This document shows, one piece after another, positions 1,203 through 56,779 of a stretch of 64,000 nt of DNA. The position numbers were made by a program, and so were the translations under genes. This DNA is from Antedon mediterranea (Eukaryota > Animalia > Echinodermata), in assembly GCF_964355755.1 (NCBI RefSeq), contig NC_092673.1:17729648-17793647 (forward strand), read 5' to 3'. Numbering within the stretch: the first letter of the stretch is position 1; each line of letters opens with the position of its first letter. The notes beneath the pieces are model-generated. The model was given only the letters and a program-made list of their open reading frames with translations, made no database searches and was not told the origin of the DNA.

Positions 1203-1313
1203 CATGGTGAAACTCCATTACTTTTATATCTGATGAGTAGAAATACAACACCTACCTTAGAAATAGTGACGTGTCTCATTCAGCATGGGGCACCAGTAGC
1301 ATTGCAAGATGAG
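1203..1313 (+). CDS. Ankyrin-repeat exon A1 (HGETPLLLYLMSRNTTPTLEIVTCLIQHGAPVALQDE), phase 0-0
   Basis: tttccAG acceptor, GTAATG donor, 111 nt open frame, G-x-TPL...IV..LI.HGA ankyrin consensus. Confidence 0.85.
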
Positions 1314-1535
1314 GTAATGTACAGGGATTTGCTAGTGTAATAGGCTAACATTCTATAGATATGCTGTGGTAAACCATTCTATTTTGTTCTACTCATTTAT
1401 TAATAATGATAATTATGATTATTTTACCACAATATTTAGCAGCAATTGTTGTTGTTTGTATTGACAAAAAAAACAAACAATTTCACATAATGTCTGTTGT
1501 CAGTATTTATAAACTTTATTATGATTCCTTTCCAG

Positions 1536-1640: not shown

Positions 1641-1859
1641 GTAATGTACAGGGATTTGCTAGTGTAATAGGCTAACATTCTATAGATATGATGTGGTAAA
1701 CCATTCTATTTTGTTCTACTCATTTATTAATAATGATAATTATGATTATTTACCACAATATTTAGTAGCAATTGTTGTTGTTTGTATTGACAAAAAAAAA
1801 ACAATTTCACATAATGTCTGTTGTCAGTATTTATAAACTTCATTATGATTCCTTTCCAG

Positions 1860-1964
1860 AATGGTAACACTCCATTACATTCATATCTGATGATTGGATA
1901 CCCTACCTTAGAAATAGTGACGTGTCTCATTCAGCATGGGGCACCATTAGCATTGCAAAATAAG
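1860..1964 (+). CDS. Ankyrin-repeat exon A3 (NGNTPLHSYLMIGYPTLEIVTCLIQHGAPLALQNK), phase 0-0
   Basis: tttccAG/GTAATG boundaries, 105 nt open frame, canonical GNTPLH motif. Confidence 0.88.
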
Positions 1965-3322
1965 GTAATGTACAGGGATTTGCTAGTGTAATAGGCTAAC
2001 ATTATATAGATATGCTGAAGTAAACCATTCAATGAGAGAAAAAAGTAAGCACATTAACAAAAATCAAATTTTATTAAAAGAAATCAAATTAAAATACTGT
2101 AATAACTAAACAGTTATATATGATTTATGATAACTGATTTAAAGTATACAGTTATCCATCAAATAACATTTATTTTTTTCTTAATGAACAAAAACAATCT
2201 ACTTGTAATTTTTTATATTCAGGTGAATCAGTATAATTTTGTTTAAATACTTTTTACCATAAAATAAATATATATTGCTCAATATGTAGCTGTAAAGATA
2301 ATAACAATTGAAAATGGTCTAATTAATTATAAATATGAAATAAAATGTATGTTGACAAATAATAAAATAGCAAACAAAAATGTTTGTGTTATTGTTAACA
2401 AAATTAATAGAATCTGATTGTAATAAAAAAAGAATTAGTTAGTGTTAATAACCTGCTCCTTACCTTACAAAAAAATACTTCTGTCAGTATATCCAGCTAA
2501 TTACAGTTTGAATATGGCCTTAAAGAGATCCTTTTCCAGCATTTTTTTTTGCAAACATTTTGCCACAAGTGGAAGAGAAATGTAAATAATGTTTAGTTTA
2601 TAGTGGTTTCCAAAATCTAAAAATGTTTGAGCAATGCAATTGGAAAAAGAAATTTAACATGAAATTATTCTTTTCAAACAGTGCCGTATCTTATCTTATG
2701 ACTTTTTGGAAAAAATGATTCTATAAAGTTGCCAGTTAAAATGTGATATACTAGTAAGTGCCCACAGATGGTTCTCGAATACTTGAACTTTGGTAAATAA
2801 CTGAAATTGTCTAAGTCGCACTGTACACAAAGCAAATGAATACAGATATGTTGGAATTTATGTAGTCAAATATAATTGTCATGCGGAGAATTACCTTAAT
2901 TTTGTTTATTACATGGTATTGTTCACCAAATTCCTGTCTTGGTACATTTTATTATGGGATGGTATCAGACTTCATGATATGATTTTCATTAAGGCAAATG
3001 GTTTAAACTAAATGTGTTATCGTTAATATCTAACTTAGCTTAATTATGATATTGGTTTCATTGTGTTAAAAATCAGTACTGAAAGTATTTACCAACTTTC
3101 TCAGATTTTAATGATTACTTACATTAAGTAATAGGCTAACAATCACTAGATCTGATCCATGGTAATATATTATATTTTGTTTTCATTTATCAATAATGAT
3201 AATTAATATTTTATCACATTATTTAGCAGTAATTGTTGTTGTTTGTATTTACAAAAAAAAAACCCAATTTCACATAATGTCTGTTGTCAGTATTTATAAA
3301 CTTCATTATGATTCCTTTCCAG

Positions 3323-6300
3323 GATGGTAACCCTCTATTACATGACTATCTGGGGAATGAATATACACCTACCTTAGAAATAGTGACGTGTCTCATTCAG
3401 CATGGGACACCTAGTATCCCCATTTTACACTTTCTCTGGGAAAAAATTAGAAACAAGTGTTTCTCAACTGATTTGTGTCATATGGGGTCTATATATCCAC
3501 CAAAAAAAAGTTCCAGCTCATCTGGCCTGGGGAAAGCCGCCATTTTGGATTTTCAAAATGGCCGCCATAAAATACAGGTTTTTGCTCATATCTCCTCTTC
3601 TACATCATGCATGGAAATGATTTTGGTGGCAAAGTGTATGTTTTGAGGGTCAAGGAATCTAAATACAGCATTTTGAAGTTCACTCAATGACCGCCATCTT
3701 GTTTTTTCAAAATGGCCGCCTTAAAATACAGATTTGTGCTTATCTCAGCTTCTACATCATGTATAGACATGGGAAAATGGAGGTTTTGACGGTCAAGGAA
3801 TCCAAATACAGCATTAATTTGAATTTCACCCAATGGCCGCCATTTTGAAAATCAAAATGGCTGCTATAAAATTTACAGATTTTTCCTCATATCTCAGCTT
3901 CTATATCATATGAACGTAATTTTGGTAGAAAAATATATGTTTTGAAGGTCAAGGAATTCAAATATAGTATTTTAAAGTTCACCTAATGCCCGCCATTTTG
4001 TTTTTCAAAATGGCTGCCATAAAATTTACAGATTTGTCCTCGTACCTCAGCTTCTACATCGTGCATGGAAATGATTTTGTTGGCAATGTTTATGTTTTGA
4101 GGGTCAAGAAATCTAAATACAGCTTTTTGAAGTTCACTCAATGACAACCATTTTGATTGTAAAAATGGCCACCATAAGCTACAGGTTTTTGCTAATTTAT
4201 GAGCTACTATGATTATGATTTTGCTAAGCCTATGTTTTGAAGGTTACAGAATAAAAACAAAATTCAGCTTTTGAAATACAGTTGGAAAGTGATAACGCGA
4301 ATAAGTCAATATGTTGGTGATAATATATGGGAACCACAATGATTATGACCCCAGGAGATACTGTACACAAGAAGATATCAGCGATGTACTGTAACTATAT
4401 CATTCGCGTGAAGAACCTAAAAATAAAATATTCTAAAAAAGTTTGTTAGACGACATTTTAAGATATTTTCCAAATCCTAAAGAGAAACATGGCCAACTTT
4501 AGTTAAGCATATTCCAATCAGATACATTATAGATAAAGCAAGTAAAGCAATTTAAAGCAACATATCTTATGTGACTGAATGGATGGTTATCTAATACACT
4601 GGGGGCTAACACTACTTCACCATAACTGGTCTGGATAATGCGATAACTGGACAAATCGACGATAGTTTATGCCGATCATTCTTTTTTATCCAATTAACAT
4701 GTCAACAGTTTATACAATGGTACAGCCACTCTGAAAACGTATATCTAGCTGCTCATCTACCAGTCATAATAATCAGACACGGAGGAGTTTATCTTTTCAG
4801 GAGCTTTCTTGGTTATATTGGACATACTGGTGGGTTGAGGTTTTGAAGTTGTGCATAACCTACTTTAAAGAGAGCTGTATATTCTAAAGCTCTTAGAGGA
4901 TGCAGCTATGTATCATATAATGATGACACGAGATGAGGATGTACCATTTTGTCTCCAGATATAGACACAGTATAGGACAATTGACTATGATGGCCAATAT
5001 GCCTGAACGACAAATTTCCATATACATACAATACAAGATGTTCCAAAAGAATGGATATCATGCAACGTGTTATAAATGGTGAAGTATCAGTTTTCAGACA
5101 TGAGCACAATAGAGAAAACCTTATGTATCTTGAAATTTGTCTTTCAGCATTTCCAGATATAGCCTTCCACTTTTGGCATTTTGGCCATGACCAGCTGCTG
5201 CAAATATAAAAGCATACTGTAGATGCTATATCTGAACCTGGAGCTCCCAATTGCACAATCACGCCTAAAAAGTTATACCATCTAATGATACAGCCACACC
5301 TTAAATGTTCTTGATATCTTTTTGACTTTCAGAGAAAGCTCTTAAGAATCTTTCGAGTTTGACGACAAATGGCAGTTTTCTTTCTCTAACTATTTGCATT
5401 ACTTTACGTCACATTGGTTGATCGAAGGTTATTAGGATGGCAGATAAGCAGCTAGATATAAACATAAATGCAGACCATTTAGGGTGACTAGTGTTAATCT
5501 CCCAGTGTATTACCATGTATTCATAAGATATTACTTGCTTTATCCATAAGTTGTACTTTTAACTGCAAGATGGCCATGCTTCTCTTTATATTTGGAAAAT
5601 ATCTTTACATGTCTATGTAACTTCTTTAGAATATCTTGTTTATTAGTTTCTTCTCGCGAATGATAGTTACAGTACACTCTCTGGTATCTTCTTGTATACC
5701 TCTTTGGTCGTAATCAGTATGGAACTCGATCTTGTGATTAACTCACGACGTTGAGATTGTGATAGCAATAGATCTCGGAGACTAGACAAAGGGGATTGTA
5801 CATAAATGTTGTTATTATTATATGTTGTGCCAGTTTGATTGGGAATTTTAAAACTATTACTGTATTTAACAAACTGTATGCAAAAAAAAGCAACATCTAA
5901 AGCCAGTGGAGCAGTAGCCTTCAACTATAAAGTTTGGTCCTAAACTTAGTTATCAAAATCATGTCTTCATTATGTATATGAGCTACGAAATTAGCAAAAC
6001 CTGTATTTTATGGCGGCCATTTTGAAAAACAAAATGGTGGCCCGGTTTTTAAATGAACTTTAAAAAAATGCTGTATTTGAAATCCTTGACCCTCAAAATA
6101 TATACATTGCCACCAAAATCACTTCCATACATTATGTGGAAGCTGAGATAAGAGCAAAAATCTGTATTTTTATGCTGGCCATTTTGAAAAACAAAATGGC
6201 GGCCATTGAATGAATTACGAAAATGCTGTTTTTCGATTTCTTGACACTCACAACTACACTTTGTCACTAAAATCACGTTCATACACGATGTAGAAGTTGA

Positions 6301-6664
6301 GATGAGTACAAATCTGTATTTTATGGCGGCCATTTTGAAAAACAAGATGGCGGACATTCAGTAAACTTCAAAATGCTGTATTTGGATTTATTGACTCTCA
6401 AAACATATACTTTGCCACCAAAATCATATCCATACATGATGTGGAAGCTGATATATGAGCAAAAATATGTATTTTATGGCGGCCATTTAAAAAATCCAAA
6501 ATGGCGGCTTTCCCCAGGCCTGATGAGCTGGAACTTTTTTTTGGTGGATATATAGAACCTATATAACTCAAATCAGTTGAGAAACACTTGTTTCTAATTT
6601 TTTCCCAGATTGGCCCTTTTTAGACTTAAAATAGGGATACTAACCAGTAGCATTGCAAAATAAG
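3323..6664 (+). pseudogene. Ankyrin-repeat exon A4 (DGNPLLHDYLGNEYTPTLEIVTCLIQHGTP|VALQNK) split by a 3.2 kb DNA transposon
   Basis: 5' part at 3323-3411 and 3' part AGTAGCATTGCAAAATAAG/GTAATG at 6646-6664. Removing 3412-6642 and one ACC copy restores an intact 108 nt exon. Confidence 0.85.
3412..6642. mobile_element. Non-autonomous foldback DNA transposon, Academ-like (TAG...CTA termini, 3 bp TSD ACC)
   Basis: Ends TAGTATCCC / GGGATACTA, with ACC at 3409-3411 and 6643-6645. Long inverted arms contain about 120 bp subrepeats with CCGCCATTTTG...CAAAATGGCCGCC palindromes. No intact transposase ORF. Confidence 0.85.
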
Positions 6665-7637
6665 GTAATGTACAGGGATTTGCTAGTGTAATAAGCTAAC
6701 ATTATATAGATCTGCTGAAGTAAACCATTTAATGAGAGAAAAAAGTAAGCACATTAACAAAAATCAAATTTGATTAAAACAAACCAAATAAAAAAATAAC
6801 TAAATAGTTATATATGATTTATGATCTGATTTAAAGTGTACAGTTACCTATCATATATAAACATAAATCTTTAATTTTCTTAATGAACAAAAAAATCTAT
6901 TTTTTTAATATATTCAGTTATTAATTAACAATTATTGACAACGGTCTAATTAATTGTAAATATGAAATAAAATGCGACAACTATTAAACAACTAAAAATG
7001 TTTATGTTAAAAAAATTAATAGAATCTGATTTTAATAAAAAACGATTATTAATTAATAATGTGCTCCTTCCCTTATCTTACAAAAAAAATGCTTCTGTCA
7101 GTCTATCCAGCTAATTATGAAAATGGCCTTAAAGAAATCCTTTTCCAACCTAGGATCTTTTTGTGCAAACATTTTGCCACAAAAGGAAGAGAAATGTAAA
7201 CAATGTTTTGTTAGTTTTCAAAAACTAAATTGTTTGAGTAATGCAATTTAAAAAAGAAAAGTAATATGAAATTAGTCTTTTCAAACTGAATGCTTTTAAG
7301 AAAAGTTCCGTCTCTTATCTTATGACTTTTTTGAAAAAATTAATTCTCGTTAAAATATAATATACTAGTAAGTGCTCACAGATGCTTCTCGAATACATGA
7401 ACTTTGGTAAATAACTGAAAATTGCACTGTACACAAAGCAATACAGATATGATGGAATGTATGTATTCAAATATAATTGTCATCCTGAGAATTACCTTAA
7501 TTTTGTTTATTGCATGGTATTGTTCACCAAATTCCTGTCTTGGTACATTTGATGATGGGATGGTACTGTATCAGGCTTCATGATATGATATGATCTTCAT
7601 CGAGGCAAATGATAAATTTGTTTTGATCGTCAATATT

Positions 7638-8620
7638 CATTCATTCATTCATTCAGGCTGATCGCCTGACTTTATTTACTTTAGGCCTCTGGCCCCTAGT
7701 AATTAATAAAATAATAATTACATTGAAAAACTAGAGGGTACTCCGAGAGTACAAACCTCCGCCTACTGTAAAATTCCCCTACATAAAATGCCCCCTGAAT
7801 ATTTTTTTTTTACATTTTTTTTTATTAGTTCTAAGTGTAAATATGTTAACTGCACACTACAAAGTTGTGGATGACAGTGTGGTTTAATGGTTATGTATCC
7901 AGCCTCTCACAGTTGAGATTGCTGGTTCAAGCCCCACTGAGGTTTTTTTTTTTTTATTTCTTTTTTTTTTTTTTTTTGTGGACCTTGATCTTTGAGACTG
8001 ACCCTTCAAAATTTAAACACAATTTATATGATGTGTCATTGATCATTGTGGCTAAGTTTGGTGAGAATCGGATCGAAACTGTGGTCTCTAGGCTGTAAAA
8101 TAGTTTTTTGTTAGTTGTGACCTTGACCTATGACCTTTCCCCCTCAAATTCGAACTCGTCCGAGCTTTTTGGGCATAGATCATTGTGTCCAAATTTGGTT
8201 AGAATCGGATAAAAACTGTGGCCTCCAGGCTGTTCACAGACACACACACAAACACACAAACACACACACAAACATACAGGGGTGAAAACATAACCTCCTT
8301 GGCGGAGGTAATAAAGCAATTTATGGTCACAAGATAAATGAATTAATTAATTTCGTTCTCTAAGCAAAACATATATCTTAACTTATAAGCATGATAAATA
8401 TATTTAGATAGATTATCAATAATTATTGGATCCTGTGATGATATTAAACGGCAGAATTTAAAAGTATTTGGATTTTCAAAAAATAAAGAAGGTATAAATT
8501 TTTTTCTGATTTCCTTGTAACGAGAGCAAACTGTAACAAAATGATATTCATCTTCAACTTCATTTATATCACATATTTTACATAACCTATTTCTGCGTTC
8601 TATTCTTTTCCAGTACAGTA
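7638..8620 (-). mobile_element. 3' fragment of a LINE (C-terminal CCHC zinc knuckle), interrupted by the HINE
   Basis: ORF 8343-8654 contains RLCKICDINEVEDEYHFVTVCSRY; (ATGA)n tail on the minus strand at 7638-7654. Confidence 0.65.
7731..8313 (+). mobile_element. Helentron-associated (HINE/DINE-1-like) non-autonomous element
   Basis: 5' subterminal ACCTCCGCC is complementary to the 3' hairpin ACCTCCTTGGCGGAGGT. Internal (CA)n tract, A-rich insertion site, and a near-identical inverted copy at 53398-53953. Confidence 0.7.
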
Positions 8621-9199
8621 AGTAGATAACCATAATAAATGCACCCGCTCCCAAAGTAATAATGACTTATCTATTCCATTATGGAATAACTCTCAGGGTA
8701 AAAGAACTTTTGTTTATAGATCAACTAAATTATGGAATTCTCTACCAAATAACACAAAATCAGAACTGCATAATATGTCTTTGGCAACTTTTAAATCTTC
8801 ACTTTAGAAAACATATATGTATTAACCTTTTTGCCTTCACAATTGTAAATAGTTTTATATCTGTTTTCTTTCCTTTTGTTTTTCTTTTTATTTTCTTTTT
8901 GTTGTAAATATGTTTACTGAACCACTTTGGAAATCAGTACATTTGTATTGAAAGTGTATTTCAGAAAGAAGAAATAAATAAATAGATTTTAATGATTACT
9001 TACATTAAAGTAATAGGCTAACAATCACTAGATCTGATCCATGGTAAGATATTATATTTTGTTTTCATTTATCAATAATGATAATTAGGATTTTATCACA
9101 TTATTTAGCAGTAATTGTTGTTTATATTAACAAAAAAAAACAATTTCACATGTCTGTTGTCAGTATTTATAAACATTCATGATTATGATTCCTTTCCAG

Positions 9200-9304
9200 T
9201 ATGGTGACACTCCATTACATTTATATTTGAGGAGTACTGCACCTACCTTAGAAATAGTGACGTGTCTCATTCAGCATGGGACACCATTAGCATTGCAAAA
9301 TAAG
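9200..9304 (+). CDS. Ankyrin-repeat exon A5 (YGDTPLHLYLRSTAPTLEIVTCLIQHGTPLALQNK), phase 0-0
   Basis: tttccAG/GTAATG boundaries, 105 nt open frame, canonical GDTPLH motif. Confidence 0.88.
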
Positions 9305-10324
9305 GTAATGTACAGGGATTTGCTAGTGTAATAGGCTAACATTCTATAGATATGCTGTGGTAAACCATTCTATTTTGTTCTGGTTTACCACATTATTTAG
9401 CAGTAATTTTTACTGTATTGTCTCATATTATGGTATATCTGCAGCATTGCAAAATAGGGTAATGTAGGCTTACAAAGAATTGTCAGGACAATTTCACATT
9501 TTATTGATATCATGTGTATTTATAAACTTCAACTTCAGTATCAATTAGCCTCCATATTAATCAATAGTATTACTACCTCAAAGAGCAGTATTATTTAATC
9601 AGACTTTCAGATATAGAATTCTCAAGTGTTTGATTTTTTTCACATTTTTCTCTTTTTACACATTCTACTAACAAGTTTGTTTTGATTTTGATATTCATTT
9701 ATAAGTCAACTATAATTGTAATGTGTTGTTGTTGTTTTAATATTTCATTTGTATCTGGATAGTATCCAAATATTATTTTCTTTGAAAGTTTATAGTAAAA
9801 CTATTTGTTGTTTTATATTATGGCTCAAACATTTTAACACATCTACCTACTGTTCCAAAGTAAACTTTTATTCAATTTATCTCTCTCTCTCTCCTCCATC
9901 TTTCAATGTTGAAGGCGGTAGACTATAAACAGCAGCACTTAAGTTTTGGTTTGGATACAGGAGTTATAGGTGGCGCACTGTACAAGTTGATGTCATTTAT
10001 TGGCAAATAGTAATTTCTATTCACGTCCTAATTTACAACCAATGTTAAAAAATAGTAAATCTACGTGTTATCACATGATGCTCTTTCATCCAATCTCTAG
10101 ATGGTAAATGTTTGAGACATGACATAATACTGTATGTATGTGATGCGTAATTAAAGTGTGTTATATTGTATATCAATAATTTCTCAAAACTACTAATAAC
10201 TAAACCCATTTTTTTAATAGGATGGATATACACCTGTCTCAGTTTTACAAAATAACTGGATGATAAGGGACCAGAGTAAAACTGAAATTTTAAACTTCTT
10301 TAAAAGTAAGTGAAATTTTAATTA

Positions 10325-11915
10325 CTAGATGGCACGCTCGCTTCGCTCGCGTACCATCTAGGTCGTGCCCACAGATGGTTCTCGAATACACAGTATTTCC
10401 AGCGAGAAAAAAATGGAGATTTCAAATGTACGTACCGCAGGACTATAATACATTGTCGTTTACAGAAACGAATAAATATACACAATGATTTATGTAGTCA
10501 ACCAAAATTAGCACCCTGGGAATTACTTCCGAGAGAGAAACAAAATGAGTCAAATTTTTTTATTTGGACTCATTTAAACAAACCCAATTTGTGTTTTGTA
10601 TGTAACATTAAGGGTTGAGGGATGGGGGAAGAAGATATGTACAAAGAGGAAACATTTTAAAATATATTCTTATCCACTCAGTAACGAAATATTGTTTTTA
10701 ATGTTTTATAGGCCTATAAATAATATACCACTAAATACAGTAAACATTTACGATTTAATACGGTACTTTGTTAAAACTCTCACTGTCATAGTCGATTGAA
10801 ATAGTAAAGTACATGTAACGATACACCACTACGACGTTTATATATTTTTAAATTATTAATTAATACAAACAGTGAGAAGCAACTGTCAGTAATAACGTTT
10901 ATTTATTTGTATATTATATGTTTATAATCTAACAGTAGGGCCTACCCACACTCACAGTAATAAAGTTTATTTGTATATATTTTTATATTACATCTAACAG
11001 TACCAACACTCACAGTAAGAAATTTGCGATTCAAATTGCGATCAAAAGTGGTTAATACCTTAACAGTATTGTACAGCATTGCAATACTATTTATGTTTAT
11101 TCTCCAAGGGGGCCCATAAATCTAAATCTATACCTCTATGGTTAAACCAAATAATTTGGAATGTTTATTTGTATATTATATGTTTATAATCTAACAGTAG
11201 GGCCTACCCACACTCACAGTAATAAAGTTTATTTGTATATATTTTTATATTACATCTAACAGTACCAACACTCACAGTAAGAAATTTGCGATTCAAATTG
11301 CGATCAAAAGTGGTTTTAACCATTAAAATACCTTAACAGTATTGTACAGCCAGGGAACTCCCTGGTACAGCATTGCAATACTATTTATGTTTATTCTCCA
11401 AGGGGGCCCATAAATCTAAATCTATACCTGTATGGTTAAACCAAATAATTTGGAATGTTCCATTCATCACAAATCAATACATTTGTAAAAACGTATATTA
11501 AATGTATCAAAATAGTATTTTTTAAAGAAAATCAGCCTGTCTTCAACATTATGATGCTGTACTCGAACTGTTCAACCGGTTTTCAGCTATTAAAAACAAT
11601 TATCGTAGGAGGAGATAGGAAAATGCGAAGCCTCCTCGCATTTTTGTGGCGGGTATTTTTCAAGATGGACATCCATTAGACAGTGTATACCACGATCGGA
11701 AAACACCCCTATTTGGGGCAAATCGTTGAACCTAAATTCGTTTTAATCGTCAATAACTAATTATCTAACTTAATTTAATTAGTAAACAGGGTTACATCAG
11801 GTGATTAAAATCAGTACCGAAAGTACGAACCAACTTTATATACCATCGAGTAAAAATTCTAGAAGTAAGGCGCGATTTACCGAATTTTGCCCTTACGTAA
11901 ATTTATATATAGATT
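10325..11915 (+). mobile_element. Helitron/Helentron-like non-autonomous element with an internal tandem duplication of about 260-290 bp
   Basis: 5' hairpin CTAGATGGCACGCTCGCTTCGCTCGCGTACCATCTAG; 3' hairpin GTAAGG...CCTTAC followed by TATATATAGATT; duplicated block starting at about 10902 and 11164. Confidence 0.6.
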
Positions 11916-20834: not shown

Positions 20835-20993
20835 AATAATTAAAGATTCTGAGAAAATCAATCAATCAATATATCTTTTAAAAATCAATTATCTTTATTT
20901 AAATCAATGCATATAACCAAATTCTAGTTTTTTTTTAACTTTATTTACTCCAGATGTTTAAAAAATCTATTAAAATCTTGATTCAATTTTCAG

Positions 20994-30100: not shown

Positions 30101-33100
30101 TATTTAAATCAATGCATATAACTTATAATTCATCATAGTGATGAATTAAATCTAATCATATTTTTAACCATTCAAAGACAAAAAAAGTTATCGCATTCTA
30201 CAGGATCATATAATATTTATTTTTACATAAAATGTCGCGATCGGAGTATGTTTGCATCACGCGTCATTTCTACCATTTCCGGTTCGATCTGGGCGTATAG
30301 CTATCTAGCTAGTAGGCAAAGGCCTAGAGGCATTAATCAAAAAGCTAGTTAGACCTAGCCTAGGTAGGTAGGCTATTTACAAATCTATCTCCAATTTACT
30401 TGTATTTTACAATACACTTGTATTACAATATATCCACTGAAAAGGCATTTTCTTTGGTTTGGTGATTTTTATTTTCAAGTACACCTTGTCATAAAAAGAC
30501 AAGAATACTCGTGAATTATGGCCACAAAATTTATGTCGCTGACACAGTATTCATGAACAAATTATTTTCAACTTCGTCTGACTGATGACATCACATACAG
30601 TCCTACGATCCTTGTGATTTGATTGGTCAAATTAAAGCGAATTTGCAAGCGAAAGCGAAAAAGTTGCCCATGGAGCAACTCTAGCGAATTCACGCGTGGA
30701 GCCTTCGCTAGGTTGAGAATCGAACGACGCCTACAAGTTCGATTTGATATTTACACTGAAATCGTCTGTCGCGACAATTACGGTTCGATTTGACGCTTGT
30801 TGCGTGTTGCTTCGCGTGTAAATTGTTCAGTGTGCACCGACCTTTAATAAGATCTAAAAAACGTAGAGAATGGGACTTTAATCTTACTAAATCTTATTCT
30901 CATATAATACATTTACAATATAGAACAGAAGTTTTAAACTGTTTCAAGTTCATCTACTTTGTGTGTATCAATCTATACAAAGTTGTTACACTGGAAAAAA
31001 AAATCCAGTAACCTATACTTTTCCTTTATTTGTTTTCTGTTTTCAATCATCACTGATTTTCAATATTATCAAAGAATTTTTATATGAAAGGTCAACGTAT
31101 AATTTAAAATATTTTTCCAGAAGGCTTTAATATTAATCAGTCAATATTTGATTAACAAAATTATTTTTGCAGATCTTCATGACATCACGATCACTTTACA
31201 TTGTTGTGTTTGATCTCAGTAAACCCTTGGATGATCTTGCTACTTTCATTGATTCCACTGGAGTAAGTATTTCTAGAACATGGCGGCAGTAAGGCATTGT
31301 GATTAAAAAATTCTTCTAATTGATAAGAGCATGCATTTTATGCATTAAAAACAGTTTGACTATTTTACAATATTTTATTTCATACCTTCCAATAAGATGT
31401 AATAATGAATGTTTTTAAAAACTAAACATTTCAAGTTTAACTTTGATTAAGTGTTCTTATATATTTTTTTTACAGAAAAAGTGTAAACATCAATGGACCA
31501 ATCTCCAGTTCATATTATCTTACATCCTGTCAGTTTATTCTCATAGTCGTATTGTAGAAGAAGATAAAGGGAAGGGAGTTCACAAACCAACTATCCTTAT
31601 TGTGGGTACACATAAGGGTAAGCTTGGTAAGAGTGAAAAAAACCAGAAGTCTGAGGTAATACTTAATGCTACCAAGAATATATTGCAGGTCTATAATAAG
31701 CAAATGAGGAAATCTGTTGTAGTGTATCAATTAATTTGATTACTTAAAGATGTATTGTCCCTTGAAACACAAAAAATGAAAAAAAAAATATTCTAAATTT
31801 AAATTAGCCATATCAAAGTAATATTAAAGTTATTCACTTTAAGTCGAAAATTTGAGCCAAAAACAACAAGTTTACGTAATTAACAGGTAAATTAATTAGA
31901 TTACATTTCGTCTGGGAAATCGTCGCAAGCGAAAGTAAACAAAGATTTCAAACCATGAGTATGCATTATGCATGATGCTAATTAGGATTGTTTACAACTC
32001 GTCACGGTTGAAAAGGTGTTTTTACACAGATCGCGAAGAAGTTTTATGATTATGCATACAGAGTAGCCAAACAAGCGCGTTGCATTATGAGATATGTTTT
32101 GATTGAAAACTTTGACTGGAAGTCAAAGTTATTTTTTGAACAAAAAAACATCTGTGTTTCGGTTAAATTTTTTTTTTTTCGACTAATTTTTGGTGAAAGT
32201 TAATAACTATTATGATACTTCAAAATTACCCCCTTTTTTTGGAAAATTATAAAAAAAAAAATTTTTTTTTTAATTAGTCAAAGGGACAATACATTTTTAA
32301 GTCTATTGTGCAATCACTAGAGTAAGCCCATATCTATCATATCATATCATATCATTTATTTCGCCAATATACAGAACAGTACAAAAAAAAAAACAATACA
32401 AAAGTAAGTCAATGAGGCCGGATAACTAAAAGTTTTAAATATAAATAACTGTCGATTCCATTAAAATTGAGATAAAACTATAAAATTCAGAAATGGATTT
32501 TTATAAAAAATTGTTAATTTAAAAAGATAGAATTAAGAAAATATCTTTAAAATATACATAAATATATATGTTCAGTTTAAAACAGATTGGTAAAATATTT
32601 CTTAAGGCTATGCTTAAAACAGTTTATATTAATTAATAGTTGGTCGCAGAGATCATAAAGAATTTGTTAATATTAATTTATAAATTTTTTATTATTAGGC
32701 AAAAAAGGTATTTAAAAAGCTTCGAAATGCAATTAAAGAGAAACTGTATGAAGTACATGTGCATAATCATTATTTTGCCATCGAAAACAGTAAAAGAACA
32801 ACAGATGAGAGCTTTAGTGAACTCAAAAAGGTTATTGATGAGTTTATGTCAGATTTAGAAAAGGATGTTCCTTTAAAGTGGATGCGTTTTCGATGTGGCA
32901 TACATAATCTAAGGAGAGAAAAACACTTTTCTTTGTGTCCTGTTGATGAGGTAAATTTATGTTTTTTCAGAATAAAAATGTATTTAAAATAATAATATCG
33001 AAAGTAGTATAAACAAAAGAATCTTCCCATTATTAAAAACAATTAGTGTTAGTAAATATAATAATGTTGATTGGTAATATGGCCCTAACGAATGAGCCAG

Positions 33101-36100
33101 ACAACTTGACAACCTACAGTGGTAATATTACATGGAATATTCTCCGCAATGTTGCCATTCTGTAAGAACAATCGTATAAAAAAAAATTCTATTCCCCAGT
33201 GAGAGTAATGCTGTCCTTCAGATCCTACATTTTAAAGTAAATGACAAAAGTAACAGTATTTACGCAAAACTTTTTTATATGGTAATTGTACCTCCAAAGA
33301 TTTTAAAATTAATAATGTTATAAATATATACCTACCAATGATTTCATATTTTATTTAAATTTGAATAGTAATAATATTTTTCTTTAGCTTAAAATGCTTG
33401 CAAGTGAGAATGGTATTGCAGATGAATCAATCCTCCTTAACTTCCTGTATGATCTTGGTGAAATTATTTACATGCCTGACAAGGAATTATTAAGAGATAA
33501 AGCAGTGTTAGATCCAATGCAGCTGGTAGAAATTGTGACTGCTTTTGTAACAGTCATTCCACCAGAATCTCCAGTAAGTAGGCTCATAAAAATGTTAATT
33601 CAGTGTTCCTTGAGAAATTAATAGGCACATGTGAATTCCTATAGGTACTGTAGTATGAAAAGCAATATCTGACAGTTACATTATAGTTTAACATTGTGTG
33701 GTATATTGTACATATCAGATGTGAAAGTATTTATTTATTTATTTTTATTTTAGTATTTTATAAGTATTTATCTATATTCTTCTAACATTATTCCTGTATC
33801 CCCTTCAGATTTTAAATTGTTTGATAACTTAATAAACACAAAATTGTAAGTATGGCTAATTATTATTATTATTTTTTTTTAAGCTTCCCATGTTTAGGAA
33901 AGCTTTTGATAATCTTGACAAGGGCATACTTGAGGAAGATTTGTTGCGAGCATTATGGAAAAAGCGTAAAGTTGACGAAGGAAAGAATTTTAAGTTCCTT
34001 GTAAAACTGATGATTCAATTAGGTTTCATTTGTGAGAGGGAGACAACCAGCAGCCAAGATGTGGCAAGTACATCTACAGTAGGTTTTGTTCAGTTATCTT
34101 TTGTAACATGTTTGGTATGCAAGATTATGTACTAAAAAATGATTTTAGGTATTAATATACATACAGTAATTGGTGAAATTTTACATAAAATTTTAGTCAC
34201 ACATATTTTGAATAAATGTGCAGGAAATGATCTTTAGTTTCTTATTAAAAGAAATTTTATTGACATTTTACAATTTAACGATTTCAGGAATCTGTTGGAA
34301 AGCGGTCATTTTTTGTGCCACTACGCCTTGCTTTCAAGACATCAACTGAAGTGAAACCAGTGCCTGATGAATTTCCAGCTATCAGTGTCTATTACGACTT
34401 TAAGGGATATCTGCCAGATGTATTGTTTCCATATATGATTATAGATTTCCTCAACAAATTTCAAAAGAAAGGAGTTGACCCAATACTCTTGTATAATCAT
34501 GCTGAACTTTACTTCGACCAAGATCATGATGTGACTTTATCTCTTGTCAAAGTCATAACTATGGAGGATGAGCGAAAGTTCTTGTTAAAGGTACTGTATC
34601 ATAGAATATCTTGTGAATAAATCATAATTTAATCTATTTCTAAACTCAAATTAAAATATCAAAACATCACTTTCCTTTTTTTCAGGTGACTATTAAAAGA
34701 ACTCCTGCTCGTAATGAAACAAGTAATGAGGAACCCTCTTCTGAAGCATGTAAAGAGGTATGTTACATTTCATATCAGTTTGGAGAACTATATATTTTTT
34801 TATAGATGTTTTGGTTGATTGTTATAATACGATATAGTTTAAAATAATTTAAACATTTAAAATAATTTTTTTTTTTAGCTGTTTCATCGTCTTAATTTGT
34901 ATTTGAAATTGTAATTTTGTAGATTCTTTAATTTTCATAATAAAAACACCACCCTAAATATCAGAATTGAAAGCTATTAACTATTGCTAAGATCTACCAT
35001 TTATAAGGTTAAAACTTTATTGATTTCAGTTAACATTATTAATTATGATATAATATAACATTGATTAGTAACAATTGATATAAAAACATCTTTAAAATTT
35101 AATTATAAATTGATAAAATTTTAATATAATATCAATTTAAAGTACAAGCAACTTAAAGTACAGTTGTCAAAACTAGTTGTGATTGACTTTTTATTATATA
35201 ATATTAATTAATAACAAATGACTTTAAAAATTCACTAGATTGGTATTTTAGATATTTATTTTATTTTTTATTGTTTTAGTTTTTCCTTTTATTGTATTGT
35301 AAATTTTTAGTGAACAAAACATTTTAAGAATTTGTGCTGCTGATTCAGAGTTGCTACATTAAGTATGTGTTTAATCGACATATAGTGTTAATTGCAGTTT
35401 GCCATTCAATTTGTACCTTTAGGTTTTGTTAACGATTCAGAAGTCATTTGAACCTACTAAAGATGGTGGTAGAAGAGGGATTCAATATGAGAGATGCATT
35501 CTTTGTGATGTATGTAGTGATGCATCAGAAAAGAAGCACATTCAAAATCTTGAAGATTTCCAGTATAGAAAGTTAAAATGCACCAAAACTGGCAAGTCTG
35601 TTACGATGGATGTTACACGTTACCAGCGGCTATTTGGAGGTAAGAGTAATATATACAAGTTTATTTTATTTATTTTGACCAATAAACAATAAACTGAATG
35701 AACAATATGATTATTCTGTAATTTAATTAAACAAACACATGCAAATTATTAAATATCTTCATTCCTCTTACCAGTAGTAGTACTATCAGAATCATTATTG
35801 ATAATCTATACATTGTTACAACATGCTGCTATTAGCTGTGATATCTTCATTCCTCTTACCAGTAGTAGTACTATCAGAATCATTATTGATAATCTATACA
35901 TTGTTACAACATGCTGCTATTAGCTGTGATATCTTCATTCCTCTTACCAGTAGTAGTACTATCAGAATCATTATTGATAATCTATACATTGTTACAACAT
36001 GCTGCTATTAGCTGTGATATCTTCATTCCTCTTACCAGTAGTAGTACTATCAGAATCATTATTGATAATCTATACATTGTTACAATATGCTGCTATTAGC

Positions 36101-39100
36101 TGTGATATCTTCATTCCTCTTACCAGTAGTAGTACTATCAGAATCATTATTGATAATCTATATATTGTTACAACATGCTGCTATTAGCTGTGATATCTTC
36201 ATTCCTCTTACCAGTAGTAGTACTATCAGAATCATTATTGATAATCTATACATTGTTACAACATGCTCCTATTAGCTGTGATATCTTTATTCCTCTTACC
36301 AGTAGTAGTACTATCAGAATCATTATTGATAATCTATACATTGTTACAACATGCTGCTATTAGCTGTGATATCTTCATTCCTCTTACCAGTAGTAGTACT
36401 ATCAGAATCATTATTGATAATCTATACATTGTTACAACATGCTGCTATTAGCTGTGATATCTTCATTCCTCTTTCCAGTAGTAGTACTATCAGAATCATT
36501 ATTGATATAAATACATATATTTTTACCAGAAACTAGCTTGTGTGTGTTAATAGCATCCATTGAATTAATTATTGTGTATTTCATTTGTTACAGGTGATGT
36601 TGGAACAGCAAGTCTAAATCCAGGTATGTTACAATCAATAGGTTGATGTAAAGTTTGTGGTGTGTATATGTGTATATAGTTCAGAAAAGGACTGTTGAGT
36701 TGTTTCTTCTTTGGTCGTCTTCAGGAGTGAGAATACAGAAAGTCCAGGACATGTGGTGTACCGCAAACTTTATATCAACATAATGTTACATTTACTATGA
36801 TAATGATGTAGACTAAGTGGATATTAAGCAATGCACACTGTTGCCATTCCACAACACATAGATCTGTAAAAAGAGATTGTATAGTATTAGTATATAGTAT
36901 TTATTTAGTTTATTAAAAATGATGTTCTATGGGGGGTGTTTATTTGAGGGAGGCGTTTATTTAAAGCAAAGTGTTTATTTGAATAAATACGATAATACCA
37001 GGTATGAGAATGTAATGTCTTATTATATGTGATGATTGAGCTAGGAACAAATGAAATATGATATCTTGTAGTCCATGACAGAATGCTACGCAATCAACAC
37101 AGGAAGTTGTACTCTGCAAACAAGGGATGTCTGTGATTGGACATAAATCATTTGGCCAGCGTTAGAACAGAATGATCAAACTTAAAATCAAGTTCATTAC
37201 AGGACCTATTATTAATTATGAGTTACATTCATCGTATCACAAATTTGGTCTAAATTTGTATCATTTATTTAAACAAAAATTTATATTATATAATAAACCA
37301 CAGAATATGTAGATACGCTACCACAAAACATTTCATTGCGATCTATATTATTTTAAATACAGATTTTCTTTTTTTAAGGTACTTTTTAATGTCTGGTCGT
37401 CTATATACAATATCCCTAGTCTGTGTGAACACTATTGCATTGCATTATATAGTTTTTTATTGATCATGTATTATACATATATAGTACATATACAGTATAA
37501 TTAACTGTAAAATTGTCATCAATTTAAGTTCAACCATATAATATTACAATTTTGTATTTACAGGTGTTCCTCTGAGTACCGTCAAAAGAAAGTCAGCATG
37601 GACGTCGACTGGTACTGGTAAGTTTGAATACCAGTAGTCCGGTGGCAGGAGGGGGATATCACCACCCAAAAGGGGACAAATTGCCATCCAACTTTTCTAG
37701 ACCAGAATTTTCCGTAGATTACGAATATGGAAGGTAATCGATCAGGATAGGAAGCGTTTTCGAGATATAAGGGGTTAAAGTTCAAAATTGACCAATATAA
37801 AAACATGCTATATCTCTGGAAATTCTGGACGTAGTGAGATAATTTTGGTGTCAAATTGTTCACAATGTATATATGTTTATATTAGCTCTAACAGAACCTT
37901 CTTTGAAAAATTGACCGGAAACCCCATTGTTAGCAATTTTGACCTTTGACCTCTTTTTGCTATATCTAAGTAACGGCAGGTCGGAGAGAATTAAAAATAG
38001 GAGCAAATTGTTCCCAAGATATACATTTATATTCAGTATAACAGATGATATTGCTTGAAAATGACCGGAAGTGTGGTTATTAACCTTTGACATAATTGAA
38101 TAAGGTTATAAAAACATAAATTAATAAATATTTGTCGTAAGGAGCCAATTTTGGTGTCAAATTGTTCACAATATATATATTTATACTTGCCATAATGCAA
38201 CATTTTTTTCAAAAAGTGACTGTAATTTTAATCTTTGACCTGTTTTTCTCATCTAAATAACGACATGGCATTTATTATTTTATTTTATTTTATTTTATGT
38301 CTTTAGGCAATGTGGCCAAGGATTACCAATAGTGAATTAATCACTGTCCTATCAGATAGGTGGTAATCCCCCTGATACAGGGGCAATTGTGTGAACCAGT
38401 TCACCGGGGTAACCCCCTACTCTTTTTCGAATAATGAACTGGGTTCTTTAAAGTACACACAGGTTATAACTGTGTACACTGGACCTACGGTTTATAGTCC
38501 TTATCCGAGAAGACTTGTTCCACCACCAGAACTAGGAGCGAGTCGGCCTCGAACCCTTGCCGATGTTGTTGTTGGCTCTTTAGGTACGGTAAACGCCGCC
38601 CCTGCCTTAACCGCTCGGCCATATGACTCACTCAATAGAGATTTCTAACGGCAAATTGTTTATAATAGATATTTTTATTCAATCTAATAGATTATACTGT
38701 TTGAAAAATACAAGTGTGATTATTGCCTTGAATCCTGTACATAAGAGCCTATCAGGGCGGATTTAATTCAAAGAGGTGTGGAAGGGGAATAATACTATTA
38801 CTATACAGTACAATGTCTTTCTTTTGAGCAATTTCAATCAGGTATCCATGTATCTCCAATAAACGGAATGTACGGCTCATAGAGAATTCAGAAGTTACCT
38901 TTGGTTCATTTTGGTAAATCCATAAGTGTTCCTTAAGGATCGAGAGTGCACAGGCAGCTTTATTCCATGTGCCTGTCTATATAAACCCACAGTGTCACCC
39001 ATTATATTTCCATTAAGGGGCTTAATGTCCATCCATGGAGGACCGGCCCTTGGGTTAATTTGGGCAAATCCATAAGTGTTCCTTAAGGATCGAGAGTGCA

Positions 39101-41999
39101 CAGGCAGCTTTATTCCATGGTTCTGCCTGTCTATATAAACCCACAGTGTCACCCATTATATTTCCATGATGGGGCTTAATGTCCATGGAGGACCGGCCCT
39201 TGGGTTAATTTTGGCAAATCCATAAATTTTTCTTAAGGATCGAGAGTGCACAGGCAGCTTAATTCATGGGCCGCGCCTGTCTATATGAACTCACAGTGTC
39301 ACCCCTTATATTTCCATTATGGGGTATAATGTCCATCCATGGAGAACGACCGGCCCTTGCGTTCATTTGGGCAAATCCATAAATCTTATTTAAAGATTGA
39401 GGGTGCACATTTAGTTTTATTCCATAGTTTACCCCATACTAATTTCTAATACAGGGCCTTATGTAGCACACCACATAGAGATCCCAAAAGGGTCCTTAGA
39501 GTGTTCATTCGGGCAAATCCATATAGGTTATTTTAGAATCCTTTGTATACAGGAAACTCTTTCCTGTATGGGCCAAACTATATAAAAATGGTGGTCTGTC
39601 TGTGTAGTGAGTTGTGGATTGAGTTTGGCCACCTGGATCTGGCTATGCCCTATCCTGTACGAATTGGTATTCTTTTCCAAAAACGAATATTGTAGCCCTA
39701 ATAAATGCAACTGTATAGTGGCAAATCATTGAAGGTCAGCGCAACATTTTAACATCATAACATTTTAATCGTCATAATATTAATTTTATTATTTATTTTA
39801 CAGTATTATATTAATACATTTAAAATAATGCGCACTAGAAAAAATATAAAAATACCATAACTTCACTGATCAAATAACGTGATTACATTTATGAACATCG
39901 ATCTCATAGTTTGAATAACTTTGCATTATTTAGTATATCATTTATTCAAATGTTGACCTTTGACCCATGTCAACTTGTGTAATGATAAATGTGCTCTTTT
40001 GATTGTGTATGATTGATAGATGTCTTAACAGAATGATAAAACATAACATTTTGTCCTAAATGTTAGTTTTTATTTGGTTTTAAATGCAAATTGGTTGATT
40101 GGTCAATATTGACATTTGACCTTTAATTGCCAAGTATTTGTTTTATAAGGCGACTGAATAACACCATACAATACATATAACCATACAAATGTATTAAAAG
40201 ACCAAATTGAACTTTGACCTTTTATCTCTTCCTATTCGCTTCCTATCCTGATCGAAGTCTGATTTGATTAAATACAGTATTATAATGAAATAACATAACT
40301 TTACTAATCCAATAATTTGATTACTTGTAAACCATCAATAACAACTTTGCATTTATTTGTTAACTAATACGCGTATTAAAATGTTGACCTTTGACCTTAC
40401 ATCAACTGATGAAATTGACCTTATGTCAACTGATGAAATGATGCATTCGCTCTTTTACATTGCGTATGATTGATTAACAGGATGAGAAAACATCCGATTT
40501 TTTATTAAATATTAGTTTTTATTTGGTTTTATAGGTACGTTCTATGATTGGTCAATATTGACATTTGACCCTTAATCACAAAGGATTTTTTTTTCATAAG
40601 GTGATTGAATAGACACTTATAATCATAAAAATGTAATAAAAGACCAAATTGTGCTTCAATAAATTTGTTATAATACATATACATAATACATTGTTGTAAT
40701 TGGTCAATTTTGAACTTTGACCCCTTATATCTCGAAAACGCTTCCTATCCTGATCGATTACCTTCCATATTCGTAATCTACGGAAAATTCTAGTCTAGAA
40801 AAGTTGGATGGAAATTTGTCCCCTTTCGGGTGGTGATTCCCCCCTCCTGCCACCGGACTACAGTATGTAATTATGTGACAGCCAAGCAAGCAAATTTTAA
40901 GAAATATTTCATTTTAAAATTTATGCCATATCTCTTTAGAGAAGAAATTGTAAAATCGATTATGAGAAATTGCATTTGCACTATACTTATTACAATACTT
41001 CTTTTTAAAAAAATCTGATAGCCATGACTTACAATTTGCCAGCAAACTTTGGCCTACTGCACTTTTTTGTATTTTTTACTATAATATATAATTTTGGTTT
41101 ATTTTTGTGTGCAGAAAAACAATAAAAAAAAACTAGATTTAAACTGTGACTGTGATGAGTTAGGTTATCCATGCAATGACTACCTATTAAGCCAGGCCTT
41201 GGTGGCACTACTAGTCTATGAAAAGAGCAAAATATTTCAGTTGATAAAAAAAAATGCCTCGAATGGTCTGCAATGTGCTGATTTTTAATAATCGAAAATT
41301 ATAAAATTTGTAAACATGCATACATGCATGTTATATGCACTATGCAACGATGGCTATTCTCACATGATGACAGACATATGACGTGAGGAAAGAATAAATA
41401 AAGAAAGAAATAAAGATTCAATAAGGTTGTATGCATAATAATAACTTTTTTTTTTTTTTTTAACTAAAGTACTATCCATGAGTAACTATCGAAAACTACT
41501 TGTGGAAGTGTCATCATGGTGGGAAGAACACGATAAGATCAATTTACTTAAATTCATCCTTTTAATGTTCAAACAAGTTACTCTAACTGACATAGAGAAG
41601 AGTGATGATCCATTCGAACTCTTTGAATTACTTGGAGCTCCTGGAATAATTAGCCCGTCAAATGTGGATGTTCTACTTGAAGCTGTTGTAATCGGAGGGA
41701 TGGAGGGTGTGGACGAGGAAAAGATCAAGCAATTGATACCAAGCTTTCCTGGATTCAGTGAAATAGCAATTCCTGACTGCTGGGATAAGCGTCAAAAGTT
41801 GATTAAATTTGGGCGTAAGATAGGTATTGATGAGCAAAAGAAAGTTGGACGCGTGTGTGGAGTGAAAAGTAAACCTAAAGATGTTTGGGCTTTGATGTTT
41901 GAACTTGAAAGGCAACGACTTTTCACTGAAGAAAGGACAAAATTCCTTCAACTGCTAAAAGACATTGACCTGGATAGACATGCAGCATTATTAGAATAG
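20994..41999 (+). CDS. ROCO protein gene 1: Roc GTPase - COR - linker - tandem death-fold (DED-like) domains; multi-exon, probably with the upstream ankyrin exons as N-terminus
   Basis: Phase-consistent GT-AG exons: 20994-21141, 21546-21631, 21969-22027, 22835-22907, 23968-24128, 31173-31262, 31476-31655, 32699-32950, 33388-33573, 33884-34078, 34288-34590, 34686-34757, 35423-35639, 36594-36623, 37564-37617, 41470-41999 (TAG). Motifs: G1 GQEGVGKT, G2 TDGI, G3 IYDHGGQ, LYIVVFDLS, G4 IVGTHKG, COR VPLKW, LNFLYDLGEIIY and FFVPLRL. Confidence 0.9.
22050..22561. mobile_element. MITE with terminal inverted repeats of about 50 bp (PIF/Harbinger-like, AWT flanks)
   Basis: AGGGTGGTTTCGCAACCATACGAATACGATAACGAAAACGGATACGTCAC versus GTGACGTATCCGTTTTCGTTATCGTATTCGTAAGATTGCGAAACCTCTCT; flanks AAT and ATT. 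Confidence 0.75.
23968..24128 (+). CDS. ROCO gene 1 exon with the Roc G3 motif (FNIYDHGGQLIYHGIHR)
   Basis: Matches the Roc WDFxGQxxYxxxH consensus; CAG/GTAAGT boundaries. Confidence 0.88.
24233..28530. mobile_element. Degenerate Kolobok-like TIR element hosting the L2 LINE
   Basis: ttaa-AGTGGGATTCCGGGTTTGAAATT versus AATTTAAAACCCAAAATTCTCCT, an imperfect inverted match. Confidence 0.45.
25745..28346 (+). mobile_element. 5'-truncated L2/CR1-group LINE (partial AP endonuclease plus reverse transcriptase) in an intron of ROCO gene 1
   Basis: ORF 25830-27836 has AGDFNFH, GHTLDL, SDH, NYRPVSNL, LDLSAAFDTVDH, GVPQG and FYADD. A frameshift continues into ORF 27800-28273. 3' stem-loop AGCGCCAT...ATGGCGCT and (GATT)n tail. 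Confidence 0.95.
31476..34590 (+). CDS. ROCO gene 1 exons encoding the Roc G4/G5 region and the COR domain
   Basis: Exons 31476-31655, 32699-32950, 33388-33573, 33884-34078 and 34288-34590, all phase 0; KPTILIVGTHK, YFAIENS, VPLKW, FLYDLGEIIY, LMIQLGFI, FFVP. Confidence 0.88.
31748..32296. mobile_element. Kolobok-like MITE with TTAA target duplication
   Basis: TTAA-AGATGTATTGTCCCTT ... AAGGGACAATACATTT-TTAA. Confidence 0.75.
35753..36507. repeat. Intronic minisatellite, 88 bp unit, about 8.5 near-identical copies
   Basis: Unit ATATCTTCATTCCTCTTACCAGTAGTAGTACTATCAG...GCTGTG; the ORF-track hits recur at 88 bp spacing. Confidence 0.97.
37635..40860. mobile_element. Non-autonomous Academ-like DNA transposon (TAG...CTA, 3 bp TSD CAG, TIRs of about 160 bp)
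   Basis: cag-TAGTCCGGTGGCAGGAGGGGG ... CCCCCTCCTGCCACCGGACTA-cag; internal tandem repeats of about 140-150 bp at 38895-39400. Confidence 0.85.
38271..38625 (-). mobile_element. tRNA-derived SINE nested in the Academ-like element
   Basis: Minus strand has A box TGGCCGAGCGGTTAAGG, B box GGTTCGAGGCC and an (AATAA)n 3' tail at 38271-38297. Confidence 0.75.
41470..41999 (+). CDS. Terminal exon of ROCO gene 1: two tandem death-fold (DED-like) domains
   Basis: Long poly-T acceptor, phase 1 entry. YRKLLVEVS...LLKFIL...PFELFELL...IISPSNVDVLLE and RQKLIKFGRKI...VWALMFELERQRLF...FLQLLKDIDLDRHAALL fit the DED helical pattern (pattern recognition, not an HMM hit). Confidence 0.78.

Positions 42000-56743: not shown

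Positions 56744-56779
<36 letters not shown>

Follow-up and report, generated by a model that had tools for sequence, protein, structure and literature searches.

The arrangement in which repeats precede a Roc-COR module and an effector part follows it has been described in several groups of organisms. The ROCO proteins of brown algae that carry leucine-rich repeats (LRR-ROCOs) have been proposed to be pathogen receptors, and they are characterized by exons that each encode a single LRR, by shuffling and diversifying selection, and by clustering (PMC3341825, PMC11378527). In Trichoplax the ROCO set numbers at least 17, and domains of the CARD, death or TIR type as well as repeats are placed around Roc-COR (Civiero et al. 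2014, PMC4104024). For bacteria, proteins of the type LRR-AP-GTPase (Roc)-COR were predicted to act against invaders, and carry effectors of at least 24 types (Kaur et al. 2021, PMC8195603), and Roc-COR-TIR forms are found in Aplysia (PMC9334734) and in sea anemones (PMC5094078). Here we describe a locus of the crinoid Antedon mediterranea, contained in a stretch of 64,000 nucleotides (contig NC_092673.1, positions 17,729,648 to 17,793,647; hereafter, the window), in which exons encoding single ankyrin repeats lie upstream of a gene for a Roc-COR protein that ends in two death-effector domains (DEDs). On balance, and with reservations given below, we consider that this gene is likely spliced to the one-exon ankyrins, and that it probably belongs to a family of intracellular immune sensors that has expanded in crinoids. 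The general repeat-Roc-COR-effector idea is already in print for brown algae, bacteria, Trichoplax, Aplysia and sea anemones, so that the preliminary description of this stretch, which knew of no characterized animal family with this architecture, overstated its novelty. What is new here is the presence of ankyrin exon cassettes with variation on the binding face, the tandem-DED tail, and the exchange of this tail with other crinoid immune proteins. No direct precedent was met in the portions considered of PMC2575513, PMC6321704 and PMC11463336; likewise, no crinoid family and no ankyrin-Roc-COR-tandem DED family was found in the literature searched, which leaves most subscription journals outside, and the source data of PMC8195603 or Figure 1 of PMC4104024 may list one. 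For ROCO sensors of this type, the literature covered reports no ligand or output.

The resemblance to the brown-algal LRR-ROCOs is extensive, since both are repeat-Roc-COR proteins, kinase-less in brown algae and probably also here, with variable repeats, each encoded by one symmetric exon (PMC3341825, PMC11378527), and both show clusters with fast birth and death and inactivated repeat exons. Some brown-algal ROCOs end in transmembrane segments and, by eye, some feather-star paralogues appear to do so too. The differences are the use of ankyrin instead of LRR exons, the animal host, and a death-fold tail that paralogues exchange and that also occurs on NLRs and a caspase; set against the brown-algal pattern, no reverse-strand repeat exon was found in the window. 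The expanded animal ROCO set of Trichoplax also combines repeats with death-fold-type domains; however, the words ankyrin, ANK and DED are absent from the text of PMC4104024, and no exon-cassette or selection analysis was met in the portions of it considered. The prokaryotic Roc-COR proteins share the succession of fast-evolving N-terminal repeats, Roc-COR and a variable C-terminal effector or adaptor, as well as the presence of several paralogues per genome; in contrast to the protein described here, they are bacterial, LRR-based and predicted only, and their tails include TIR, caspase, trypsin and GT4 domains (PMC8195603).

When the window was read and its exons were joined by coordinates, 22 exons formed a single open frame of 1,079 codons, which starts with the four intact ankyrin exons, continues with one cap and one linker exon, and ends with Roc-COR and the tandem DED. 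An AG acceptor precedes each of the 22 joined exons, a GT donor follows the 21 non-terminal ones, and the intron phases chain without interruption (0-0, 0-1, 1-1, 1-2). All these exons are on the forward strand of the window, whose DNA is AT-rich. The ankyrin exons 1 (1203-1313, 37 codons), 2 (1536-1640, 35 codons), 3 (1860-1964, 35 codons) and 5 (9200-9304, 35 codons) have phase 0-0, and exon 2 lies in a tandem unit of 324 bp formed by exon and intron. Exon 4 (3323-6664) is split by a transposon into a 5' part at 3323-3411 and a 3' remnant with a donor that ends at 6664; hence, of the five ankyrin exons that the preliminary description had placed upstream of a 16-exon Roc-COR gene on the same strand, all were located and four are usable. 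Its exon list had also omitted two bridging exons that are in phase, namely the ankyrin C-cap exon (10221-10305, phase 0 to 1) and the linker exon (15768-15860, phase 1-1). The Roc-COR-DED part is formed by 16 exons, from 20994 to the stop codon at 41997-41999. Eight of them (20994-32950), assigned by Pfam and by motifs, encode Roc and the start of COR: 20994-21141, with the P-loop GQEGVGKT, 21546-21631, 21969-22027, 22835-22907, 23968-24128, with the sequence DHGGQ, 31173-31262, 31476-31655, with the G4 motif GTHKG, and 32699-32950. COR continues in five exons (33388-33573, 33884-34078, 34288-34590, 34686-34757 and 35423-35639), which are followed by two short linker exons of phase 1-1 (36594-36623 and 37564-37617) and by the terminal exon with the tandem DED and the stop (41470-41999), after which AATAAA is present at 42029. 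The order ankyrin, Roc-COR, tandem DED that had been proposed was thus borne out by the exon joins, the Pfam matches and the DED model. An alternative acceptor 40 bp before the first Roc exon was also noticed (20954-21141, forward strand); this version is in phase 0, open, and begins with ATG, and it could be joined directly to an ankyrin exon or act as a start.

The splice link between the ankyrins and Roc is in our estimation quite probable for this copy and highly probable for the family as a whole. Three paralogue models fuse this ankyrin type to Roc. One of them, the RefSeq model P0130 (XP_071948802.1), is located on the same chromosome record and has the order ankyrin-ankyrin-cap-linker-Roc, as here (65% over 357 columns); P0132, on the same record, joins this ankyrin type and a cap to Roc-COR; and P0060 (XP_071964198.1), on another chromosome, has eight such ankyrin repeats with a cap, Roc-COR and a tandem DED end. 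The cap exon is 50-52% identical to the caps that precede Roc in P0060 and P0130, and the linker exon shares 83% identity with its counterpart in P0130, which likewise lies between cap and Roc. Four sequencing runs were aligned on ankyrin exon 3 at 80% likeness. In the run X1, presumed to be RNA, the exon was enriched, with values of approx. 1,700-2,300 over most of exon 3 versus approx. 400-770 in the nearest intron flanks; the three other runs, all from one sample, showed no exon enrichment. Only X1 gave three contigs that link the end of an ankyrin exon to the start of an ankyrin exon, in addition to loose ends that read as adjacent exons.

Several observations speak against this link. The RefSeq protein of the locus, XP_071948768.1, annotated as an 'uncharacterized protein' of A. 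mediterranea and identical to the 908 C-terminal residues of the joined frame, begins at 15081 with a start exon (15081-15132, forward strand) in place of the ankyrins, and then includes the linker exon. Ankyrin exon 4 is broken and reads through into a stop, so that a full-length protein requires that it be skipped, which its symmetric phase permits. The X1 joints, being aligned at 80% likeness, may derive from any paralogue, and among the 15 of 512 joints shown from a repeat-swamped alignment of 20 kb, in which an absence is uninformative, no exon-to-exon joint, and thus none of cap, linker and Roc, was present at the locus. Furthermore, ankyrins occur in none of the 16 models of one set of Roc/COR models from the same chromosome, the paralogues that support the link are automatic models, many of them fragmentary, and the linker exon is 97% identical to a stretch that precedes the ZU5 domain in P0151, a model with ZU5 and a DED pair, that is, outside Roc genes. 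The RefSeq model without ankyrins would fit a decaying or ankyrin-less paralogue, in which the ankyrins were orphaned from a rearranged neighbour and Roc-COR-DED is expressed alone or not at all. The existence of ankyrin-only models (P0129 and P0131), the absence of an ankyrin exon between 42000 and 57000 before the downstream paralogue B, and the insertions at the locus (the transposon in exon 4, an LTR-element end before exon 1 and, in introns further downstream, a LINE and another inverted-repeat element) would agree with it as well. However, splice sites and frame are preserved in all 22 exons, the cap and the linker match the chain of P0130, the Roc exons show a ratio of non-synonymous to synonymous change (dN/dS) of 0.42 versus paralogue B, and a strict exon scan of 9320-20980, which also missed the cap exon itself, gave no stop or terminal exon candidate after the cap. 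In addition, two close paralogue models that have the same linker use other, unrelated start exons, which looks like automatic filling. We therefore regard the decaying-paralogue explanation as unlikely, and a protein that joins ankyrins to Roc-COR as the better account of the locus. Ankyrin exon 1 has an acceptor and no Met, so that the 5' end of the gene is outside the window and the absence of a kinase is not readable from the window; in the models P0060, P0129, P0131 and P0132 the N-terminus consists of a Met and a short cap immediately before the ankyrins, and no kinase is present.

The family to which the gene belongs is expanded, as had been supposed. Paralogue B (57082-63836, forward strand) starts 15 kb downstream, with six in-frame Roc exons of the same intron phases, and runs off the window; 127 of 182 aligned residues are identical, the dN/dS value given above is calculated over these 182 codons, and neither an N-cap exon nor a death-fold exon was found for it in 42000-57000. 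None of the RefSeq proteins compared is identical to paralogue B. A candidate exon of 38 bp at 54010-54047 corresponds to the tail of model P0110. The chromosome record of the locus, of 36.19 Mb, contains at least 22 models with Roc and/or COR (16 of the 26 matches of one search, and six more from another). This count was obtained after clustering at 90%, with approx. 8,000 candidates scored in each search, and it may therefore be incomplete; conversely, many of the 22 are fragments, which implies fewer genes. Comparisons between members indicate that the modules are mosaic, that is, family members swap tails and their modules are not passed on as a block. P0103 and P0104 share 98.5% identity along 745 residues, yet only 20% in their DED tails; the gene described here shares 55-57% identity with P0060 in the ankyrins, versus 26-29% in Roc and COR, and 68% with P0103 in the COR region, versus 23% in the DED pair. 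In other relatives Roc is preceded by a kinase, by a death domain, by DEDs or by other ankyrins, and COR is followed by death domains or by hydrophobic tails. Among individual models, P0132 contains ankyrins and two Roc-COR units from different clades and is possibly the product of two fused genes, P0114 has the order kinase-Roc-COR-two death domains, and P0026 the order Roc-COR-DED pair-ZU5-DED pair. A tblastn search of P0130 against phages gave no match.

Each ankyrin repeat corresponds to one exon of phase 0-0 within the 324-bp exon+intron unit, whose copies are 87-93% identical. Pfam Ank matches four of the five ankyrin exons with E values from 3.7e-6 to 3.6e-3 (6.7e-4 for exon 1), and one match, that of exon 3 (27.4 bits), is above the curated cut-off. 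The variability of the repeats, which was part of the earlier proposal of a variable sensor, was found as an excess of change at the predicted binding positions 3, 5, 10 and 13. The mean pairwise distance is 0.059 in the flanking introns and 0.050 at non-synonymous sites of the second helix; in the first ten codons it reaches 0.22 at non-synonymous versus 0.08 at synonymous sites, and the loop that follows is saturated and varies in length between copies. Counted as minimum changes, there are 14 at the 30 sites of the first ten codons, 24 at 164 intron sites and 6 at 63 framework sites; without the broken exon the counts are 10, 17 and 6 (p 0.0025 versus the introns). At codons 3, 5, 10 and 13, nine of 12 nucleotide sites are variable versus 10 of 84 elsewhere (Fisher p 1e-5), or 7/12 versus 9/84 when only the intact exons are considered (p 5e-4); in this count, indels led to the omission of the loop codons past position 13, and the 84 sites include those of positions 2 and 33. 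Positions 2, 3, 5, 10, 13 and 33 are those randomized in a designed ankyrin library (PMC4308713). Moreover, the contigs of all four sequencing runs concentrate substitutions and indels on 1890-1904. Such a concentration of changes at binding-face positions is what a binding surface under pressure would be expected to show. This test draws on five related exons, non-independent sites and positions that were examined after seeing the data, and gene conversion alone could flatten the introns; both points weigh against the sensor reading. A degenerate sixth ankyrin unit, with an exon end and pieces of intron, is present at 9424-9531, right after exon 5. Joints from 1656 to 9740 and from 2484 to 9009, which skip 8,083 and 6,524 bases of the ankyrin array, were present in all four runs and might reflect structural variation of the array or units from paralogues.

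The assignment of the central module is clear from the profile scores that had been called for as a check, since Roc (51.1 bits, cut-off 27) and, directly after it, COR-A (40.1 bits, cut-off 35.3) both exceed the Pfam cut-offs; P0001 gave Pfam matches to Roc, COR-A, Ras and DED only. The best sequence matches in the PDB are Roco proteins, i.e., archaeal/bacterial Roco and the Roc of LRRK2, and the Atlas structure model resembles Roc-COR clusters with template modelling (TM) scores of 0.59-0.63 over 610-630 residues. By these comparisons the gene belongs to the ROCO family. The motifs G1 to G3 are intact, with the P-loop, the switch I Thr and, in switch II, DHGGQ (DxxG). The G4 motif has no Asp, therefore a GTP switch is not assured, a point that tells against a nucleotide-controlled sensor. 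Of 20 such motifs from this chromosome, 19 lack this Asp, as do three sea-urchin relatives; it is present in P0060 and in four close Anneissia relatives. G4 and G5 vary among Roco proteins, and the model favoured in the review literature is a nucleotide-dependent cycle between monomer and dimer, not a simple GTP-driven dimerization (PMC6337361).

Two candidate identities were rejected: an orthologue of DAPK1 or LRRK on account of the kinase-less complete paralogues and the DED tail, and a bona fide NLR on account of the absence of a STAND domain (NACHT or NB-ARC) in the Pfam scan of P0001. DAPK1 has ankyrins before Roc. With the DAPK1 group the present protein shares a Roc-COR that is followed by a death-fold domain, and the lack of LRRs (Wauters et al. 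2019, PMC6337361); it differs from it in that the paralogues with a complete start have no kinase, in its tandem DED instead of one death domain, and in being expanded and variable, not a conserved single copy. With NLRs, including the invertebrate DED-NACHT forms (PMC2575513), it shares sensor repeats, a nucleotide-binding core and a death-fold adaptor, whereas Roc-COR takes the place of NACHT and the effector is C-terminal, which makes the likeness a functional analogy and not membership. The protein is neither an NLR nor a DAPK1 orthologue, yet plausibly one that works like an NLR.

The terminal exon had been suggested to encode two death-fold domains, and when it was folded with an alignment of 46 sequences, two packed DEDs were obtained with a predicted local distance difference test (pLDDT) of 95.8 and a predicted TM score (pTM) of 0.90. 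Compared with the tandem DED of caspase-8 (4zbw), this model gave a Z score of 14.8 with a root-mean-square deviation of 2.8 Å over 161 residues and 14% identity; the values were 10.7-12.3 for cFLIP and viral FLIPs, and approx. 7 for single death domains. All 24 rows listed by Foldseek are caspase-8/FLIP DED entries, none of which reaches an E value of 0.001. At the level of sequence the relationship is distant, with an identity to caspase-8/FLIP of only 10-16%, which counts against the sensor reading; the Pfam DED match is below the cut-off, a phmmer search of the exon against the PDB gave no real match, and the family profile retrieved from the PDB FADD alone, with an E value of 0.74. Where this profile aligns to the FADD motif, DED1 has LKFI. 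The tandem fold is that of caspase-8, cFLIP and MC159; unlike in these proteins, the pair is placed at the C-terminus of a GTPase, and a Phe-Leu pair, the motif required for the growth of caspase-8 chains (PMC3477315), is not evident by eye in the matching helix of DED2, which also counts against the sensor reading.

A search with the DED exon gave 99 matches, all of which were scanned with Pfam (40 at E 0.01 and 59 at E 1e-5). Roc/COR was found in 17 (14 by Pfam and three by BLAST), NACHT in 12 and TIR in six; one match each corresponded to an NB-ARC-TPR protein, a kinase, a RIG-I helicase, a Rel protein, a caspase, a ubiquitin hydrolase, an ENTH protein and an NHL protein, and most of the remaining ones had DEDs only or no family. 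The 15 matches with the species shown are all crinoid, and the caspase, Rel and RIG-I matches are outside these 15. The individual models P0049, P0069, P0070 and P0085 with this tandem-DED type comprise a caspase with four DEDs, a Rel-homology factor, a RIG-I-like helicase and a ubiquitin hydrolase; RIG-I-like helicases usually carry CARDs. This distribution agrees with the immune context that had been attributed to the module, and the shared pair suggests a DED-wired immune network. The pairs most similar to the one described here belong to an NB-ARC-TPR protein encoded on another chromosome and to the four-DED protein XP_071949886.1 (64-65% identical), followed by those of kinase and TIR proteins (34-38%), and that of the caspase is 25% identical. 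For this reason direct recruitment of a caspase is not the first guess, and if like binds like, an adaptor step would be more likely for this member. The earlier view of the tail as a caspase-8/FLIP module thus holds for its fold and not for its closest relatives.

From these elements a sequence of events can be proposed. The ankyrin array would bind a foreign or damage-associated ligand through a face that may change fast, while duplication of the 324-bp exon unit would keep the scaffold and the introns uniform. As the biochemistry of Roco proteins would lead one to expect, binding of the ligand might shift the monomer-dimer state of Roc-COR, and this shift might cluster or expose the DED pair. 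The pair would then recruit the most similar pairs, i.e., those of the four-DED, adaptor-like protein and the NB-ARC-TPR protein, and then those of TIR and kinase proteins, and these partners could engage a DED caspase or the Rel factor. A broader proposal, which we put forward as a tentative possibility, is that crinoids have a receptor system parallel to NLRs, with Roc-COR in place of NACHT, with one-exon ankyrin cassettes similar to designed ankyrin repeat proteins (DARPins) that are duplicated, shuffled and alternatively spliced into a varied repertoire of binders, and with exchangeable tandem-DED tails that plug into a DED network shared with NLRs, the RIG-I-like helicase, TIR adaptors, the Rel factor and the four-DED caspase.

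Instead of a sensor of pathogens, the protein could be a DAPK1-like scaffold for cell death or stress, with ankyrins of its own that bind host proteins; the size of the family and the swaps of tails would then come from an unstable tandem array and not from an arms race. The order repeat-Roc-COR-death fold does resemble the non-kinase part of DAPK1 (PMC6337361), and clusters in which Roc-COR is combined with Death or CARD, as recovered by structure-cluster matches, are common in molluscs and sponges. In this case, however, change would not be expected to concentrate on binding-face codons, nor 13 of the 14 minimum changes in the first ten codons to fall in codons where the residue is altered, and the DED module would not be expected to be common to NACHT, TIR, RIG-I-like and Rel proteins; we consider that this scaffold role has a rather low probability. 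More doubtful is a decoy or brake of the FLIP type, in which the DED pair would cap the assemblies that NLRs or caspases form through their DEDs, with the altered Roc serving as a scaffold and not as a switch. The closeness of the fold to cFLIP and viral FLIPs, nearly as good as to caspase-8, the lack of an evident Phe-Leu pair in DED2 and the missing aspartate in G4 would suit this role. Nevertheless, the P-loop, the switch I Thr and DxxG are intact, and the relatives found on NACHT proteins and on the caspase share the same divergent DED type, from which it follows that the family probably uses an interface of its own; the brake is improbable. The idea that the exons are chance open reading frame tracks was rejected. 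An immune sensor that combines ankyrins, Roc-COR and a tandem DED is therefore the reading that we retain.

Regarding the mobile elements of the window, the DNA transposon in ankyrin exon 4 (3412-6642) is 3,231 bp long, shows terminal inverted repeats of the form TAG...CTA together with a target duplication of 3 bp, and is presumably Academ-like. A second inverted-repeat element, also with TAG...CTA ends and a 3-bp target duplication, occupies 37633-40861 in the last intron. Before ankyrin exon 1, the end of a retroelement (1-1048) contains an open reading frame at 1-468, a purine tract and a TG...CA repeat at approx. 870-1048; we take it to be of the type of retrotransposons with long terminal repeats (LTRs), and a Pfam scan gave no real match for it. 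Remnants of the endonuclease and reverse transcriptase of long interspersed nuclear elements (LINEs) are present at 25743-28270 and 54264-56372; the former, in a Roc intron, retains an open frame of 697 codons (Pfam RVT_1, E 3e-32). Satellites were found in introns of paralogue B (47 copies of an 81-bp unit at 59754-63578) and of the gene described here (8.6 copies of an 88-bp unit at 35753-36507). Weak Pfam rows for TcdB_N, URGCP, Fer4 and PHAX were dismissed as chance.

If the sensor reading is right, this locus would provide an animal, and deuterostome, case of the exon-cassette ROCO receptors for which the argument has so far been made in brown algae, and its defined death-fold output would be open to assay. 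The view would also gain support that Roc-COR, the switch of LRRK2 and DAPK1, can act as an immune threshold device that replaces NACHT, and the locus would offer a kinase-free system for asking what Roc-COR switches. Given that the ankyrins vary at positions that protein engineers randomize, they may constitute a natural library of binders, and the occurrence of a single type of tandem DED on sensors as well as effectors of crinoids represents a testable wiring map.

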